Assembly (NCBI GenBank): GCA_964512315.1
Contig: CAZEIK010000002.1
Location: 45,304 to 109,303 of the forward strand
Reading direction: 5' to 3'
Origin: an uncultured Candidatus Saccharibacteria bacterium
GTDB lineage: Bacteria; Patescibacteriota; Minisyncoccia; Phycocordibacterales; UBA5272
DNA: 64,000 nucleotides
Part shown: piece by piece, positions 3,782-43,635 of the stretch
How positions within the stretch are numbered: position 1 is the first letter of the stretch
Layout: the number at the start of each line of letters is the position of its first letter
Position numbers and translations under genes: made by a program
Notes under the pieces: model-generated
Database searches by the model: none
What the model saw: only the letters and a program-made list of their open reading frames with translations
Told to the model about the DNA's origin: nothing

Positions 3782-5433
3782 AAAAAATAATTGCTTCATT
3801 CTTAATAGCTTTTGGACTTTGGACAAACACTGCGTCAGCTTTTATAGTTTTTGACCCTACACAATTCAGTACACAAGTACTACAATATGGGCTAGAAATT
3901 GCTGGCAACATAACAGCTTACCAAAGCATGATAAAAGAGTACGCACTAGACCCGCTCGCTTATGCAATAGCGCAACGTGTTAAGAATCAAATTAAGCAAG
4001 AGATAGTTAAGTGGGCACAAGATGGTGGTAGTGGTAAGCCTCAGTTCCTCGAGAATCCAGAAAGATTCTTCACTAATCTAGCAACTCAGGAGCTAACACT
4101 AGTTAAGCGTGACCTGATGACTAATATTGTTGGTAATGACGCCGTGTTGAAGGCTTTGGTCTCAGGTAATGCCGAAGGGTATGTTAAAAAGTCTTTCCAA
4201 GAATTCATGGTACCAACAACCAACAAAGTGATACAAAATGACATCTGTTCTCCTGCGAAGCTGCAAAAGATGGCTTCGGAGAACGCTGCTGGTGCAGCAG
4301 AATTCGCAAGGCGCTATTGTGGAGCAACAACCAGCACCTCATCTCAGCAGCAGCAATACAAAGACCTTCAGAACTGCTTTGCCAAAGACTTCTCATGTGG
4401 TGGCTGGAACGCCTTTCTGTCTATTACCCAGGACCCTTATCGAAATACAGAGACCGGACGCCTGGCCGTTGCACAGTTACAACTTCAGCAAAATGTAAAT
4501 CAAAAAACAACCAACACCAATAATGAGCTTAATCGTGGAGGAGGATTCTTCAGTCAAAAAGTATGCAAGAAGGGCGCTTTGTTAGAAAAAGATGACCAGG
4601 GCGAGCCGCTACCCAAAGAAAGTCAACTCTGTACCGAGTACGAAACACTCACTCCTGGTGACCAGATAAGGAACCTAACTAATGAAGTATTAGGCGACCC
4701 TCTCAAGCAATTGCAACAGTCAGACGAGATTAGTGAGATTATTGTTAGCGCACTTATGGTGAAACTGCAATCCATAGGTCTACGTCATCTAAAAGATGGT
4801 TTTGATAATCTTATTAGAGGCGCAACCGATGGATCTGGTAGTCTGCGAGACAGCGTGACTGCAGCTGGCGCTCCGAAGGACCCAACAGTAGCCAGCAGCT
4901 CAGTAACACTAAGTAACGCCGACCATCGCAACTTAACAGCGAACATGCTTCAACTTATGAATAGTGTGCTCAAGGAACACTCAACCAACTTAACTGTTGT
5001 ACAAGAAGAATTAACCAAATATCAGAATCTTGCTGACAAAATAGTTCAGATTGAGACCTGTTATCAAGAGAAATCTTCTTGGCTTGCAATGCCGCCACTT
5101 GTAAAAACAACAGTAGACTCACAGAAGCAAATAATAGGCCAGAAAGTCTTGGCTCTTGCTGATGAGTTTTCTACATACAAGGAGAAAGCTGACGACCTTT
5201 CAGCAGCAATAGAGACAGTCACAAGGAGTCGTGACGCCGACGCTATAACCAATATATATAACGCCTTCAATGCGGAGCTTTCTGCTAATTCATATCTAAC
5301 TTCTGCTGTGGCAGACAAGAGAAGGGCGGACAATGAGGAGCTGTACAAACAACTAGACCAACTTTCTACAACTTTTGACTCAATGTTAACCGAGTGTCAA
5401 CAGGCTCAACCAAGTACAGCTGGAGGTAACTAA
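3778..5433 (+). CDS. secreted hypothetical protein (T4SS-associated)
   Basis: Signal peptide MKKIIASFLIAFGLWTNTASAF. 551 aa with a Gln-rich stretch and predicted coiled-coil C-terminal half. Start overlaps the previous stop. Confidence 0.5.
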   Translation: MKKIIASFLIAFGLWTNTASAFIVFDPTQFSTQVLQYGLEIAGNITAYQSMIKEYALDPLAYAIAQRVKNQIKQEIVKWAQDGGSGKPQFLENPERFFTNLATQELTLVKRDLMTNIVGNDAVLKALVSGNAEGYVKKSFQEFMVPTTNKVIQNDICSPAKLQKMASENAAGAAEFARRYCGATTSTSSQQQQYKDLQNCFAKDFSCGGWNAFLSITQDPYRNTETGRLAVAQLQLQQNVNQKTTNTNNELNRGGGFFSQKVCKKGALLEKDDQGEPLPKESQLCTEYETLTPGDQIRNLTNEVLGDPLKQLQQSDEISEIIVSALMVKLQSIGLRHLKDGFDNLIRGATDGSGSLRDSVTAAGAPKDPTVASSSVTLSNADHRNLTANMLQLMNSVLKEHSTNLTVVQEELTKYQNLADKIVQIETCYQEKSSWLAMPPLVKTTVDSQKQIIGQKVLALADEFSTYKEKADDLSAAIETVTRSRDADAITNIYNAFNAELSANSYLTSAVADKRRADNEELYKQLDQLSTTFDSMLTECQQAQPSTAGGN

Positions 5434-5471: not shown

Positions 5472-7832
5472 GTGAAAATCTGGCGCGCAATATTAATCTT
5501 AACCTGTTTTTCTATACTTTTTTTCGCGCCACAGATCAGTTATGGCCAAGCTGTGCAACCTTGTGACACAGCCGAAACAATAGGTACTACATATCCATGC
5601 AGAGACAGCCAAGGCAGAAGTTGGGGTAGTTTTGCTGAAAGGCAAAACGCTATGAACGCTGCCGGGGCAGCGGAAATGGCTAAAAAAAATGAATCTAAGC
5701 CAACAGGTCGAGTTCAAGTTTGTCCAGCTGCTGCATATGAAAAGTTTTCTCTCGCAAACCTAGCCTCTGTTGGGATTTTGCCAGCTCTTTGTGGTATTGT
5801 AGATTTCACTCTTTCTGGAATAGGGTGGGCCTTGGCTGGTTTAATGTATCTTTGTGCAACACTTTTTGACTATTCTTTCGATAATTTTGTGTTACACATA
5901 GCAACAATGTTCCAGGATGAAGACGGAGTTAACAAGGCTTATATATATGGCGCTTGGACAGCTATACGAGATTTAGCCAACATTGCAGCATTCTTTGCTG
6001 CTGTGTACGCCGGATTCTTACGAATTATAGGACAAAATCAAGAAGACTTTCGTAAGGCTGTTGCCAAGCTTCTACTCTTCGCATTACTTACTAACTTTTC
6101 TTTTGCTTTGTCAAAGTTCGCAATAGATGTTTCTAATGTTATCTCGCTGCAAATATATGGCGCTGCTTCTGGTTATAAGTTTTCTGGGAACGTTAGCACT
6201 AGTTCACAAGGAATGCTTTCAAGCGACTACGGCATTAGTACTGCCTATATGAAGCAGATGGGAATATCTGCTTTTGTGCAGGACACGTCACAAGTAAATC
6301 CGAACTCTGCTTTTAAGAACCTAGACTCTCTGACTGTTGTTTTTGTTTCTTATATTTTCTTTATTTTTGCGGGTTGGCAATTTTTAAGTATGGCGATTTT
6401 TATTTTAACGAGAAGCTTTTTATTAATTGCTAGTGTTATTTTTTCTCCGCTGATGTTTATTGGAGGGCTTGTGCCAGCTTTAGACAAAGCTCATGACAAG
6501 TGGCGAGAGACATTTTTTGGTAATTTGGTTGTTGCTCCTATATTGGCCATATTTACTTGGTTAGGTCTTCAGATTTTAAAGGGTGCCAATGAGACAACTT
6601 TAGGAATTATTGGCGACGGCAGCATACAAGATATGTTAAAGCAGATTGCCATGCTTGCTCTTACAGGAATATCTTTATATGTCGGCAAAAAATTTGCTGA
6701 GCAAGCCTCGGGGGCGGTTGGGCAATTTGCAGTAAAGGTCTTAGGTGGAGCGGTGGGTGGGGCGGCGATGGCTGTTGGTACTGCGGGTACCGGATTCGTA
6801 GCTCGTGCCGGCATGGCTCGTGCGGCAGCGATGGCTGGTAATGTTGGCAAGAAGTGGGCAACACAAGAGGGCGCAGGTAGAGCCAAAAAATTCGCAGGAG
6901 GGCTACTTCTTAAGGGTGGGGAGAGGATGGAGAAGACTCAAATATTCGGCCGCTCTGCTTATGATGTTAGAAAAGGGATTGAGGATAAGGTCGCAGATAA
7001 GCGCAATACAGTATTGAGGGAGAATCGTATGGCAGCCAGGAACCTAGGGTGGACAGACAGGTTAGAGCAAGCCAAGAGCGCTGATGAGGTGGCATATATG
7101 GAGCAACAAATCAAACGTGGCACTACATATTCGAGGGATACACATGACGCAGAGATAGCAGCGCTCAAGAACAAGCCAATACAAAGAGCTTCTGCTTCTG
7201 AGCTGCGTGTACTAGATAAAGACTTAGACAAGGCCCGTGATTTAGATGAGAAGATAAAGATAAAAGATTCCACTGTTGCTACACAGATACAAAATGGTCA
7301 GAAAGCGTTAGATGACGAATATGGAGATATAATAAAAACAAGAACAGAATATCTTGAAAATCAAAAGCGTGGCAACGCAACAGCAGAAGAGAGAAAGAAA
7401 ACTGAAGACTATATAGCCACCACAAGAAAAACTTTAGCCGATAAGAAGGCTGAATTAGAAAAGCAATTAACGGAACAAAAGAACTCTGACACTTATTATC
7501 AAGACCTACAAAATCAACTAAAAGTTTTACAAGATGATTACTCTAAAACAACCACAGCCTATAAATTAGGCTCAGCTGTTGGTGTTATGAATGAGACGCA
7601 GAGGCAGGCTGGTGAGCAGGATTTGGCTGCAATTAAGGGAGCAATATCAACTTTGGGGAGCATAAAACCTTTCACTACCGAGTTCGACCAGCCCAATTTA
7701 GCCCCTGGTCAAGCTACAACTTTCCAAAATATACAAAAAAGCTCTGGCGGTGAACCATTTAACACGCTGACACCAAAACAAGCAGACTCTATTGCTTCAA
7801 AATTAAGAGGCTTTAAGAAAGCGAAACAATAA
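5472..7832 (+). CDS. VirB6/TrbL-like polytopic membrane protein with a long C-terminal coiled-coil extension
   Basis: GTG start. Signal-like N-terminus, then at least 6 hydrophobic helices and a Gly/Ala-rich segment, followed by a roughly 300-aa charged coiled-coil tail. Sits upstream of the VirB3/VirB4 homologues. Confidence 0.55.
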   Translation: MKIWRAILILTCFSILFFAPQISYGQAVQPCDTAETIGTTYPCRDSQGRSWGSFAERQNAMNAAGAAEMAKKNESKPTGRVQVCPAAAYEKFSLANLASVGILPALCGIVDFTLSGIGWALAGLMYLCATLFDYSFDNFVLHIATMFQDEDGVNKAYIYGAWTAIRDLANIAAFFAAVYAGFLRIIGQNQEDFRKAVAKLLLFALLTNFSFALSKFAIDVSNVISLQIYGAASGYKFSGNVSTSSQGMLSSDYGISTAYMKQMGISAFVQDTSQVNPNSAFKNLDSLTVVFVSYIFFIFAGWQFLSMAIFILTRSFLLIASVIFSPLMFIGGLVPALDKAHDKWRETFFGNLVVAPILAIFTWLGLQILKGANETTLGIIGDGSIQDMLKQIAMLALTGISLYVGKKFAEQASGAVGQFAVKVLGGAVGGAAMAVGTAGTGFVARAGMARAAAMAGNVGKKWATQEGAGRAKKFAGGLLLKGGERMEKTQIFGRSAYDVRKGIEDKVADKRNTVLRENRMAARNLGWTDRLEQAKSADEVAYMEQQIKRGTTYSRDTHDAEIAALKNKPIQRASASELRVLDKDLDKARDLDEKIKIKDSTVATQIQNGQKALDDEYGDIIKTRTEYLENQKRGNATAEERKKTEDYIATTRKTLADKKAELEKQLTEQKNSDTYYQDLQNQLKVLQDDYSKTTTAYKLGSAVGVMNETQRQAGEQDLAAIKGAISTLGSIKPFTTEFDQPNLAPGQATTFQNIQKSSGGEPFNTLTPKQADSIASKLRGFKKAKQ

Positions 7833-34843: not shown

Positions 34844-34880
34844 AAAGCGGTTTTGATTTTCTTAACGTTTTTGTATTTTT

Positions 34881-34950
34881 AGCAGGATTCGGTCACAAAA
34901 CATATTCCGCTGACACTACATTGTTTCGCGACCCCGTATTCGAATCCTGA
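34881..34950 (-). repeat. conserved tRNA-associated element, copy A (ends in a copy of the tRNA-Lys T-arm)
   Basis: Shares TCGAATACGGGGTCGCGAAA and ATATGTTTTGTGACCGAATCCT (tRNA sense) with the copies at 43448-43521 and 38537-38581. Terminal 11 nt are identical to tRNA-Lys 35008-35018. Confidence 0.6.
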
Positions 34951-35000
34951 CAAAAGACGCCCTGGCGTCTTTCTCTGTGTTCACAATTTTTACAAAATTG

Positions 35001-35073
35001 TGCCCCCAGCAGGATTCGAACCTGCGACCATCTGCTTAAAAGGCAGTTGCTCTACCGACTGAGCTATAGGGGC
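35001..35073 (-). tRNA. tRNA-Lys (anticodon UUU)
   Basis: Cloverleaf GCCCCTATAGCTCAGTCGGTAGAGCAACTGCCTTTTAAGCAGATGGTCGCAGGTTCGAATCCTGCTGGGGGCA. Anticodon loop CTTTTAA. Confidence 0.85.
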
Positions 35074-38133: not shown

Positions 38134-38390
38134 TTACCAAATCAGCAAAAAAAGCTCTTCGTGTAAGCGATCGTAAGAAGGTTGTAAATGACCGTCTATC
38201 GAAAACTATGAAAGAGGCTGTAAAAACAGTTCGCGCTAAAGTTCAAAAGTCTGATGCTTCTGCAAAAGACAGTCTTTCAAAAGCCTTCAAAGCTCTAGAC
38301 AAAGCAGCAAAGAGGGGAACAATTAAACGCGGAACAGCAGACCGCAAGAAGTCACGTCTTGCTAAAGCTGTAGCTAAGGTTTCTAAGTAA
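38127..38390 (+). CDS. rpsT: 30S ribosomal protein S20
   Basis: MAITKSAKKALRVSDRKK... basic alpha-helical 87-aa protein. Confidence 0.85.
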   Translation: MAITKSAKKALRVSDRKKVVNDRLSKTMKEAVKTVRAKVQKSDASAKDSLSKAFKALDKAAKRGTIKRGTADRKKSRLAKAVAKVSK

Positions 38391-38429
38391 ATTTAAAAGA
38401 ACGTCGACCGACGGGTCGGTGTTCCATAC

Positions 38430-38501
38430 GCTCTCGTAGTTCAATGGATAGAATTCAGGTTTGCGGTACCTGCGATGTAGGTTCGATTCCTACCGAGAGC
38501 A
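38430..38501 (+). tRNA. tRNA-Arg (anticodon read as GCG)
   Basis: GCTCTCGTAGTTCAATGGATAGAATTCAGGTTTGCGGTACCTGCGATGTAGGTTCGATTCCTACCGAGAGCA. Acceptor, D, anticodon (CAGGT/ACCTG) and T stems all pair. Loop TTGCGGT. Confidence 0.7.
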
Positions 38502-38536
38502 CTAAAAATTAAAGAAAATCAAACATGGTTTTCAAT

Positions 38537-38581
38537 TGAGTGAAGTGACTATATTTTGTGACCGATTCCTACCGAGAGCAC
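38537..38581 (+). repeat. conserved tRNA-associated element, truncated copy C (ends in a copy of the tRNA-Arg 3' end)
   Basis: GAGTGAAGTGACTATATTTTGTGACCGATTCCTA is 36/37 identical to copy B. Terminal CGATTCCTACCGAGAGCAC duplicates tRNA 38483-38501. Confidence 0.6.
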
Positions 38582-38606
38582 GTTCTAGTGAGATATACTA
38601 AATATC

Positions 38607-39179
38607 ATGAAAACTTTCTTTATTATCCCAGGCTTTAAACAAAAAGTGAATGATAAAAGTTTTGTGTGGTTAAAAGATTTTCTTACTAAAAAAGGATTTC
38701 GGGTGGTTATGGTTCCTGTTAAATGGAATCGAACTACGTTAACAGATTGTGCAGTTTTATTTGAGGATTTTTTTGATGAGAATAGAGGCGCAGAAAATTA
38801 TGTACTTGGTTTTTCCTATGGTGCTATTATTGCACTCATGACTGCAGAGAAACTTCAACCGAAGAAGCTTTTTCTGTGTTCACTAAGTTCTGATTTTAAA
38901 GAAGACGTTCCCAGTATGAGCGATGCAATAAAAAGATATATCGGCAAAAGAAGGGTGGACGATTGTTTGACTAGAAGCGGTAAAGATATTGCTAAAAAAC
39001 TTTCTATTCCTACGGTTATTTTTTATGGTGATAAGGAAGGAATTGAATATCCTCAACTTAAAAAGAGGTGTGAAGAAACCGCTCGTTTATCAGCAAGGAC
39101 AAAGATTGTAATTGTAAAAAACTCACCACACGATATATCTTTTCCAAGTTATAAAAAGGCTATTTGCGATTATGTTTAG
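38607..39179 (+). CDS. alpha/beta-hydrolase fold protein
   Basis: Nucleophile-elbow-like GFSYGA. 190 aa. Confidence 0.5.
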   Translation: MKTFFIIPGFKQKVNDKSFVWLKDFLTKKGFRVVMVPVKWNRTTLTDCAVLFEDFFDENRGAENYVLGFSYGAIIALMTAEKLQPKKLFLCSLSSDFKEDVPSMSDAIKRYIGKRRVDDCLTRSGKDIAKKLSIPTVIFYGDKEGIEYPQLKKRCEETARLSARTKIVIVKNSPHDISFPSYKKAICDYV

Positions 39180-39208
39180 CGTTTATTATATTTATAAGTG
39201 ATATAAAT

Positions 39209-40478: not shown

Positions 40479-40565
40479 GGAAGTGTGGCCGAGTGGTTTA
40501 AGGCACCTGTCTTGAAAACAGACGACCCCTTAAAGGTCCGTGAGTTCGAATCTCACCACTTCCGC
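40479..40565 (+). tRNA. tRNA-Ser (anticodon UGA)
   Basis: GGAAGTGTGGCCGAGTGGTTTAAGGCACCTGTCTTGAAAACAGACG... with a long variable arm and GAGTTCGAATCTC T-arm. Matches the canonical tRNA-Ser(UGA) architecture from memory. Confidence 0.85.
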
Positions 40566-40572
40566 TAAAATC

Positions 40573-41010
40573 ATGAAAATACATGAATTGGGTCATGTTG
40601 TGTTATATGTTTCTAATTTAGAAAAATCTGCGAATTTCTATCGAGATATTTTGGGTTTTAAAGAAATACATAGAGACTCGCACACTGCATTCTACTCAAC
40701 AGGTAGGACTCATCACGAGATGCTTCTGATTGAGGTTGGCGGACAGAAAGATGTAACCAATTATCCAAAGCCTGGACTCTATCATATTGGTTTTAAAATT
40801 GGTAATACCGATGACGAGCTGCGCGAAGCAAAAGATACTCTACTAAAAAATGGAATAGAAATAGTTGGCTCAGCCGATCATCATGTGACACATAGCTTGT
40901 ATATATTAGATCCAGATCAAAATGAGCTAGAGCTGTATATTGATGTAGATGACACCTGGAAGACGGACCATAGCAAAATACTAAATCCAACAAAAAGATT
41001 AGACCTCTAG
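40573..41010 (+). CDS. VOC (glyoxalase/bleomycin-resistance/dioxygenase) family protein
   Basis: MKIHELGHVVLYVSNLEKSANFYRDILGF... and the YHIGFKI second module. The ORF-track start at 40540 lies inside the tRNA-Ser, so the ATG at 40573 is preferred. Confidence 0.7.
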   Translation: MKIHELGHVVLYVSNLEKSANFYRDILGFKEIHRDSHTAFYSTGRTHHEMLLIEVGGQKDVTNYPKPGLYHIGFKIGNTDDELREAKDTLLKNGIEIVGSADHHVTHSLYILDPDQNELELYIDVDDTWKTDHSKILNPTKRLDL

Positions 41011-41478: not shown

Positions 41479-41832
41479 ATGGAAAACGAAATCAAAATAG
41501 AAAATAATCACATTACAATAGATGACTTTGCAAAAGTTGAGATAATGCTAGGCACTATTATAAGCGCAGAAGAGGTGGAGGGTAGTGATAAGTTATATAG
41601 ACTCAAGGTTAATTTTGGGGAAGAAAGGGTGAGAAACGTTTTCTCTGGTATTAAGAAGTATATTACCACAGAAGAGTTGGTTGGTAAGCAGTTCCCATTT
41701 GTTACCAATCTTGAGCCACGCAAAATGATGGGTGATTATAGTGAGGCCATGATACTAGCTGGAAGTGTTGGGGATGACTTGGCATTAATGTCTCCAACTA
41801 AACAATTACCTAACGGAACCAAATTAAGGTAG
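41479..41832 (+). CDS. tRNA-binding domain protein (CsaA/Trbp111-like)
   Basis: DFAKVEIMLGTIISAEEVEGSDKLYRLKVNFGEE...FPFVTNLEPRKMMGDYSEAMILA, an OB-fold tRNA-binding (Myf) domain. Confidence 0.75.
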   Translation: MENEIKIENNHITIDDFAKVEIMLGTIISAEEVEGSDKLYRLKVNFGEERVRNVFSGIKKYITTEELVGKQFPFVTNLEPRKMMGDYSEAMILAGSVGDDLALMSPTKQLPNGTKLR

Positions 41833-43383: not shown

Positions 43384-43447
43384 ACAAAAAGTATAGCAGA
43401 TTTTGATGTTTAGTTAGTATTTGTTGCCACAGATACTTTTTAAAATT

Positions 43448-43521
43448 GGTGTCCCTGCTAGGAATCGGTCACAAAATATAGTCGCTTCACTCCTTATTTC
43501 GCGACCCCGTATTCGACTCCT
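43448..43521 (-). repeat. conserved tRNA-associated element, copy B (ends in a copy of the tRNA-Arg(UCU) 3' end)
   Basis: Shares TCGAATACGGGGTCGCGAAA and GAGTGAAGCGACTATATTTTGTGACCGATTCCTA (tRNA sense) with copies A and C. Terminal GATTCCTAGCAGGGACACC matches tRNA 3' end GATTCCTAGCGGGGACA with one mismatch. Confidence 0.6.
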
Positions 43522-43563
43522 AAAAGCAAAACCTAAGTTTTGCTTTTGTGTACACTTTACAAG

Positions 43564-43635
43564 TGTCCCCGCTAGGAATCGAACCTAGATCTAGAGCTTA
43601 GAAGGCTCTCGTTCTATCCATTGAACTACGGGGAC
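43564..43635 (-). tRNA. tRNA-Arg (anticodon UCU)
   Basis: GTCCCCGTAGTTCAATGGATAGAACGAGAGCCTTCTAAGCTCTAGATCTAGGTTCGATTCCTAGCGGGGACA. Anticodon loop CTTCTAA. Confidence 0.8.

Follow-up and report, generated by a model that had tools for sequence, protein, structure and literature searches.

The window, by which we mean the whole stretch of 64,000 nt analysed, carries a tRNA-Arg gene with a GCG anticodon that is followed on the same strand by a short repeat-bearing region, here called copy C, and by a hydrolase-like gene. The features of this locus are:

38430-38502, + strand: tRNA-Arg(GCG), to which copy C is attached (ARAGORN; Rfam tRNA model, 64.9 bits)
38484-38502, + strand: X1, the tRNA's own segment from C56 to position 74 and source of the repeat (exact 19-mer, T-loop register)
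38514-38533, + strand: H1-like hairpin of 8 bp, GAAAAUCA-AACA-UGGUUUUC (MFE and centroid fold, alignment to copies A and B)
38538-38562, + strand: H2 remnant, consisting of loop and 3' strand, GAGTGAAGTGACTATATTTTGTGAC, with its 5' partner deleted (alignment to copies A and B)
38563-38581, + strand: X2, a 19/19 direct repeat of the tRNA 3' end from C56 to C74 (exact 19-mer, family register)
38607-39179, + strand: gene for a 190-aa alpha/beta-hydrolase-like protein, given for context and outside the element (weak Pfam matches)

Two intact copies of the same element lie elsewhere in the window:

34875-34984, - strand: copy A, behind tRNA-Lys(UUU) (35000-35073, - strand); covariance model 87.7 bits, fold z = -3.3
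43451-43556, - strand: copy B, behind tRNA-Arg(UCU) (43563-43635, - strand); covariance model 74 bits, fold z = -4.9

In the folds of copies A and B, hairpin H1 comes first, and after it a stem encloses a second, long hairpin, H2; copy B is the closest relative of copy C. A first-pass annotation had placed copy C on the opposite strand, which holds relative to A and B, but every copy follows the strand of its own tRNA: copy C begins directly past tRNA-Arg(GCG) and is read, like this gene, from the + strand.

The exact 19-nt duplicate of the tRNA-Arg 3' end reported for this site was recovered at 38563-38581. Its sequence, CGATTCCTACCGAGAGCAC, occurs exactly twice in the window (38484-38502 and 38563-38581), and none of 100 dinucleotide-preserving shuffles of the window reproduced this twofold match. 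The two repeats are spaced 79 nt from start to start, with 60 nt and no ORF between them. The repeated tRNA end is part of the element, as had been proposed, since X2 stands in the family register and starts at C56. Furthermore, the 34-mer GAGTGAAGTGACTATATTTTGTGACCGATTCCTA (38538-38571) matches copy B (43459-43492, - strand) at 33/34 positions with one mismatch, compared to a mean of 0.00 matches in 100 shuffled windows. The similarity to copy B described earlier is therefore real, but its coordinates and extent had been given as 38537-38570 and 36/37; extension of the match in either direction yields about 34/37 upon reading of both sequences. The tRNA-end copy does not follow this 34-mer, as was first thought. 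The two overlap, the final 9 nt of the 34-mer, CGATTCCTA, being common to both and already inside the 19-nt repeat.

An alignment no better than random in AT-rich DNA had been considered beforehand as grounds for dismissing the match, and the mere likeness of two tRNA-Arg genes could be added as its source. The T-arm sequence CGATTCCTA, common to both tRNA-Arg genes, does account for 9 of the 34 matching positions. However, the other 25 positions, none of them part of a tRNA, agree at 24/25, neither the repeat nor the 34-mer match came up in any shuffle, and the motif TTTTGTGACC recurs in 83 independent loci, which leaves chance or tRNA likeness with a practically negligible probability.

In the alignment to copy B, a gap of ~34 nt in copy C marks the loss of X'b, the UCGAAUAC junction and the 5' strand of H2. 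The absence of the GGGGTCGCGAAA half had been noticed before; absent as well is the antisense arm to the T-loop and T-stem. Thus, the H2 5' strand GGGGUCGCGAAAC and the antisense arm X'b with UCGAAUA are both missing, while the H2 3' strand UUUUGUGACC is present at 38553-38562. Because X'b and the H2 5' strand are deleted, neither the closing helix nor the H2 helix can form. The spacer hairpin was formerly listed as missing too, but the 8-bp hairpin at 38514-38533 sits where A and B have H1 and is its putative, degenerate counterpart, with an atypical loop. Copy C has a fold no more stable than that of shuffled sequence (z = -0.6) and was left unscored by the family covariance model R1 with filters off and E values up to 10, at which only copies A and B scored. 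A search of JGI metagenomes with a 25-mer specific to copy C, aimed at closer relatives with an intact element, returned 0 matches. Altogether, the 19-nt repeat, the 33/34 match to copy B and the ~34-nt gap bear out the initial view of copy C as a truncated third copy, and we regard its membership in a tRNA-linked family of CPR genomes, described below, as highly probable.

Two further observations concern the tRNAs of the window. The usual anticodon of bacterial tRNA-Arg is ACG, and GCG would be consistent with CGN codons being read without A-to-I editing; tRNA-Arg with a GCG anticodon was found in the window (38430-38502) and in three other loci (L011, L022 and L033). Between the tRNA clusters, at 41479-41832, lies a gene for a 117-aa protein that consists of a tRNA_bind domain (PF01588, Trbp111/CsaA-like). 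This is a structure-specific tRNA-binding fold, and the protein is worth remembering as a candidate partner of the element.

A family of tRNA-linked elements in CPR genomes

The family was collected with the pattern GGGGTCGCGAAA-N(15-35)-TTTTGTGACCGA, which fixes 24 nt of H2, in one genome per prokaryotic species. This identified 50 genome loci, often several per genome, and the same pattern detected 33 further loci in JGI metagenomes and had 0 exact matches in IMG/VR viral contigs. All relatives are MAGs or metagenome contigs; those genome records that bear a lineage name are without exception CPR/Patescibacteria MAGs (Paceibacterota, Nomurabacteria, Saccharibacteria, Gracilibacteria), the others being named just 'bacterium'. 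The covariance model R1, built from 50 copies, finds ~70 full copies in 371 kb of genome loci.

In the genome loci and the window together, 48 of 82 tRNAs, representing 24 anticodons, have a same-strand element starting within 200 nt downstream, a fraction biased upward by the selection of loci that contain an element and restricted to tRNAs with enough flank. Inclusion of tRNA-Trp and tRNA-Asp, which carry the element in metagenome loci only, raises the total to at least 26 tRNA species. The element is positioned 45-100 nt behind the tRNA, and 0 family copies near a tRNA have the other orientation in 435 kb. Remnants that retain the 3' part only, most of them at the distal end of an array, number ~8, compared to 63 full copies; among the copies surveyed for remnants, none keeps the 5' strand of H2 without the 3' strand. 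Rfam 15, applied at permissive thresholds to the window and eight canonical loci, returned just tRNAs and chance hairpin matches, and literature searches of open-access text retrieved no description of a tRNA-linked element of this kind in CPR genomes.

The tRNA is followed by a palindromic hairpin with an A-tract and a T-tract that resembles a bidirectional terminator and in many copies reaches into the 3' strand of the tRNA acceptor; in L011 there is a perfect 30-bp inverted repeat that includes CGGGGGCACA. The element starts just beyond this hairpin and is composed, from 5' to 3', of:

X'a: antisense to the acceptor 3' strand; optional, intact in 21/49 copies
Linker: conserved A(G/C)AG between X'a and H1
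H1: stem of 6-9 bp, as a rule with a CUGC loop, followed by the dinucleotide CG
X'b: exact reverse complement of tRNA positions 54-65, followed by UA(C)
H2: near-invariant base GGGGUCGCGAAAC/GUUUUGUGACC with a fixed G.U pair; tip variable and covarying
X2: copy of the tRNA end, starting at C56 in 38/51 cases; full-length repeats end within ~1 nt of position 74

X'b tracks T-loop variants of the respective tRNAs, such as CGAGU, CGAUU and CAAAU, and closes H2 by pairing with X2. Only 6/49 copies have X'a and the acceptor part of X2 (X2a) intact together, and the core is therefore not a full acceptor/T-arm minihelix. The conserved core of the family is H1, the X'b:X2b pairing and both strands of H2. 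This lends no support to the first-pass annotation in its view of the 3' module of copy C, i.e. the H2 3' strand with the tRNA-end copy, as the conserved and possibly functional unit.

In an alignment of 69 sequences, standard pairs fill 95.9% of cells compared to 77.4% in shuffles, of which 0/500 reach the observed value, and fall to 38-48% after the partners have been displaced by 1-3 columns. Changes on both sides were observed for 20 of 28 pairs. The innermost H2 positions of this alignment are fixed by the search pattern; divergent copies found with the model covary at inner H2 as well (GCGGAAC/GUUCUGUG and GCGAGGUCU/AGACCUCGUG). Outside the fixed H2 base, 40 G.U pairs stand against 15 A.C pairs, and the G.U pair of the H2 base is retained in 67/69 copies. 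The G.U bias and the fixed G.U pair imply that it is the tRNA-sense strand that folds, be it as RNA or in the form of single-stranded DNA, which when folded would show the same covariation and a G.T bias; templated (quasi-palindrome) mutation can be another source of compensatory changes in palindromes. Copies within one genome are alike only in H2 and in the junction motifs.

Position 74 is C in all 112 tRNA genes examined across all loci. The full CCA is encoded in 27 of these 112, the remainder having mostly CAA, CAT, CTA or CAG. C is kept at position 74 in 31/33 X2 copies, and CCA follows X2 in 5/33 listed repeats.

Several loci harbour other element types of the same layout, i.e. antisense arm, structured insert and tRNA-end repeat, with different inserts (L028 3879-4051, L001 3268-3416, L041 3240-3400, and the tRNA-Cys flanks of L001 and L050). 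Examples of these inserts are GGGCCGCAGCG...ACTTGTAGCC and GGGGTCGGGAAAAC...GGTTGTGAC. In the L041 element the antisense arm complements the tRNA end perfectly over 22 contiguous nt, and H1 is absent. In L036 a second, tandem element (3829-3939) combines an X'b that fits CGAGUCCCG with an X2 equal to CGAAUCCCUAUCUCCCAGCA, sequences of different tRNAs, and is preceded by a stub resembling copy C, TTTGGTGACCGAGTCCCAC, fused to half an H1. This chimera is evidence of recombination among elements.

Retention over divergence and variation among strains

An element behind tRNA-Lys(CUU) is syntenic in L001 and L014, in which the adjacent protein is only 58% identical. An alignment of four genomes shows compensatory changes in the stems of the terminator and of H1 and no change in the H2 base or in the junction motifs. 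Moreover, H1 of copy B shows a compensatory change from C-G to T-A between near-identical strains of the window organism. Together with the divergence of copies within one genome outside H2 and the junctions, this is the signature of an old, constrained element rather than of a recent burst of a selfish repeat.

Strain contigs covering copy C were picked by their encoding an identical S20 protein. The truncated form is present in four further contigs (L051, L052, L053 and L055), of which L053 alone has a GTGACC-to-GTGCCC substitution in a motif that is otherwise invariant. Full elements were found at orthologous tRNA-Arg(GCG) genes of other MAGs, namely L022, whose tRNA is near-identical, and L033. 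An alternative allele is found in L056, L057 and L060, in which tRNA-Arg(GCG) is directly followed by a canonical terminator palindrome and then by a degenerate X'a and a hairpin resembling H1; in L057, whose contig extends far enough, the DUF1295 gene comes next, and H2, X2 and the hydrolase gene are absent. The alleles of this site (window 38503-39203) become homologous again close to the end of the DUF1295 gene, at ...TAAAACCACGGG. The copy C allele has no terminator-like hairpin after tRNA-Arg(GCG). The hydrolase gene is present only in strains with copy C; the Pfam matches of its product are weak, all below the curated cut-offs, and a look-up of the exact protein found no match.

At the site of copy B, the alternative allele (window 43384-43562 compared to L062, L063 and L065) has a perfect 20-bp terminator palindrome that includes the last 2 nt of the tRNA, and a gene for a 180-aa AhpC/peroxiredoxin protein in place of the element. 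The alleles at sites B and C are replacements that start exactly at the tRNA end and not precise insertions or excisions.

In L065, tRNA-Arg(UCU) has a part from the variable loop to the 3' end that derives from another tRNA, its acceptor stem is mismatched, and the neighbouring gene encodes a Calx-beta protein; this chimeric tRNA is either an island junction or an assembly chimera at low coverage. The flank of tRNA-Ser(UGA) is a third strain-variable tRNA 3' flank, with a gene of the glyoxalase family in the window (40479-41010) and a gene for a 464-aa SduA_C protein (Shedu-type defence) in L051 (5353-6264).

Comparison with RtT and other known systems

The closest counterpart in build is the rtT RNA of E. 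coli (RF00391), which is processed out of the tyrT transcript and whose role is little understood. The E. coli tyrV trailer (NC_000913.3 1286709-1287328) consists of 178-nt units, each ending with AATCCTTCCCCCACCACCA, i.e. nt 58-76 of tRNA-Tyr. Every unit contains an antisense decamer, GGGGAAGGAT (also given as GGGGAAGGAU), which pairs with the repeat in the MFE fold, and this antisense:repeat pairing constitutes the closing stem of a multi-hairpin structure. The 3' end of the annotated RttR RNA is the exact end of the repeated tRNA-Tyr sequence.

RtT and the CPR element are both located directly behind a tRNA gene on the same strand, and the unit of each ends with the last ~19 nt of the tRNA. 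In both, an internal antisense stretch pairs with the tRNA-end copy and thereby closes the structure, and tandem units are possible; of this architecture the repeat alone survives in copy C. They differ in the register of the repeat, which runs from C56 to position 74 and usually lacks CCA in the CPR element, whereas it extends from A58 to A76 with CCA in E. coli. Only the CPR element has a near-invariant H2 and an H1 that interrupts the antisense arm at the 65/66 junction. Furthermore, the CPR element is rewritten for at least 26 tRNAs and stands behind a terminator palindrome, whereas RtT belongs to one tRNA. RF00391 scored 133-138 bits on each E. coli unit, which served as positive control, and had no match at E<=10 in the 33-48 kb region of the window and none at E<=1 in eight CPR loci. 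We file the CPR family as RtT-like in build and outside RF00391, an analogy with no detectable homology that gives architecture, not mechanism. Literature searches of open-access text found no discussion of the antisense closing stem as a parallel between RtT and the CPR family.

Direct repeats at the att sites of tRNA genes share with the CPR family the repeat of the tRNA 3' end behind an intact tRNA, the possibility of serial repeats and the variable flank. Unlike att repeats, those of the CPR family are separated by only 79-170 nt, without an integrase, and enclose an interior that is conserved and covarying; no precise empty-site allele was found, and orthologous copies are kept over deep divergence. 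For copy C in particular, neither integrase nor cargo lies between the repeats, and the strains offer no precise empty site. An origin as phage or plasmid attP was rejected on the 0 matches of the exact pattern in IMG/VR.

In integron attC sites and the attP(+) of CTX phage, as apparently in the CPR family, structure is conserved more than sequence, and imperfect inverted repeats fold into a target-like duplex. Some CPR copies resemble these systems in having small single-gene cargo; their stems, in contrast, copy the end of a tRNA gene and not the core site of a recombinase.

In tRNA-like structures (viral TLS, the tmRNA domain, mascRNA) a parallel lies in those copies in which X'a:X2a stacked on X'b:X2b would mimic the top half of a tRNA in the sequence of the cognate tRNA itself. 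However, H2 replaces the T-loop, the pairing often passes the discriminator, and the Rfam models of tRNA, tmRNA and mascRNA had no match on the element in the window region and eight loci. A complete acceptor/T-arm minihelix mimic was rejected as a conserved feature because both acceptor arms are intact in only 6/49 copies. X2 as cDNA of a mature tRNA or as a CCA-bearing mimic was rejected too, CCA being found after 5/33 X2 copies compared to 27/112 tRNA genes. The idea of an H2 inserted in the T-loop of a tandem tRNA duplicate fails since the 5' arm does not copy the T-loop but has its reverse complement (AAUCGAA versus UUCGAUU); this 5' arm also covaries with N59. A group I intron was rejected as well: those described in Patescibacteria tRNAs interrupt the anticodon loop at 35/36, and the size of the element is too small for one. 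For hammerhead and other small self-cleaving ribozymes, no CUGAUGA core is present in the sequences and there are no Rfam matches.

Status of copy C and possible role of the family

The H2 of copy C is of the copy B type, its X2 is that of its own tRNA, and the junction between the two lies within CGAUUCCUA, which is common to both tRNA-Arg genes. This combination suggests that copy C may have arisen by gene conversion or recombination between the two tRNA-Arg loci. Copy C is a decayed, internally deleted and probably inactive element.

For the family as a whole we favour, with moderate confidence, a tRNA-trailer RNA that is made by read-through and trimmed at the repeated tRNA end, with H2 as a handle for a factor and copy C as an inactive form. 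The intact element would be transcribed together with its tRNA by read-through and would fold as RNA, and the tRNA 3'-end machinery would trim it at the repeated tRNA end. The product would be a small RNA with a tRNA-like 3' tail, as in E. coli RtT, and a conserved trans-acting factor may recognize it by the invariant base of H2. Copy C would be a non-functional relic, in which at most X2 might mark a processing point before the hydrolase mRNA. By analogy to the 3' end of E. coli RtT RNA at the end of the repeated tRNA, a processing site at ~38580/38581 is a reasonable idea. No promoter-like site was found on the + strand in 38323-38607, a range that includes the interval from the tRNA to the hydrolase start. 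As the copy C allele lacks both such a site and the terminator palindrome, the hydrolase may be expressed by read-through, its mRNA possibly extending from the rpsT/tRNA promoter.

Against a trailer RNA speak the location of the element past a bidirectional terminator that looks strong and its lack of a separate promoter, which together make its transcription dependent on read-through. Against a static RNA gene speak heterogeneous arrays (L041, L016), solo copies remote from tRNA genes (L010, L018) and cargo of 1-2 kb separating tRNA and element (L025, L031).

These latter observations are better accommodated if the elements are miniature tRNA-targeting insertion or recombination cassettes, whose structured part folds, in single-stranded DNA or in RNA, into a copy of the tRNA gene 3' end as an attC- or attP-like site. 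X1 and X2 would then be att or target duplications and copy C an attR-side scar. The precise register of the direct repeat, which starts at C56 in 38/51 cases and in full length ends within ~1 nt of position 74, speaks for such a process, as do tandem arrays (L041, L016) in which units of differing type all finish with the same tRNA repeat, near-identical and sharply bounded solo copies in one genome (L010/L036, L018/L025), single genes between tRNA and element (kinase-like in L025, GNAT/ASCH in L031), the element in L036 (3829-3939) with arms of different tRNAs, the hypervariability of tRNA 3' flanks between strains, and the occurrence of one H2 type in copies B and C, each with the X2 of its own tRNA. 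On the other hand, copies within a genome differ outside H2 and the junctions, which argues against a recent burst, orthologous copies are kept in synteny over deep divergence, and the alleles at sites B and C are replacements with no precise empty sites. Moreover, the exact pattern is absent from viral contigs (0 matches), and the antisense arms are specific to their tRNA, which simple target duplication leaves unexplained. No recombinase is linked to the elements, the serine recombinase of L046 belonging to a separate island with a tRNA end unlike the element's X2. We therefore hold cassettes of this kind to be possible but rather unlikely.

The L046 locus merits description in its own right: a gene for a 503-aa large serine recombinase (5561-7147; Resolvase, Recombinase and Zn_ribbon_recom domains) is convergent on tRNA-Ser(ACU) and overlaps its 3' end. 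A further 5.7 kb away is an R1-type element, the X2 of which fits the 3' end of another tRNA-Ser. The arrangement gives the impression of an island that has separated a tRNA from its former trailer element by insertion.

The idea that the 3' module itself, i.e. the H2 3' strand with the tRNA-end repeat, is functional as a processing site, a 5'-UTR element or a start point for the hydrolase mRNA draws on its position 25 nt before the hydrolase ATG, on its being identical in four further strain contigs, and on the joint absence of module and hydrolase gene from other strains. In addition, 3'-only remnants recur while the H2 5' strand is never kept alone, and E. coli RttR RNA ends where the repeated tRNA sequence does. 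However, the absence of a promoter-like site between 38323 and 38607 on the + strand, a fold no better than that of shuffled sequences, the substitution in the invariant GTGACC in L053, the position of other 3' remnants at far array ends without a consistent downstream gene, and the requirement of the family core for both strands of H2 make a function of the module very unlikely. Finally, it is conceivable, although we deem it unlikely, that the family is an undescribed CPR-wide class coupled to tRNAs, with arms rewritten per tRNA around an invariant hairpin, that does something new. One possibility would be a cis-encoded antisense or guide RNA acting on the 3' half of its own tRNA via a three-way exchange between tRNA end, antisense arm and repeat; another would be a folded docking site for the swapping of single-gene cassettes, such as the strain-variable hydrolase, at tRNA genes.

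As a relic, copy C itself is minor, but the family it revealed is abundant, strongly structured and retained over deep divergence; in the CPR loci sampled, which were chosen for containing an element, roughly every second tRNA gene has a copy. Repeated tRNA ends in these genomes are, as a warning, not automatically the boundaries of prophages or islands. The tRNA 3' flanks are flagged as main sites of strain-level change in gene content in these reduced genomes. With the read-through trailer RNA as the preferred reading, a larger, more diverse and independent family with RtT architecture would give comparative leverage on trailer function.
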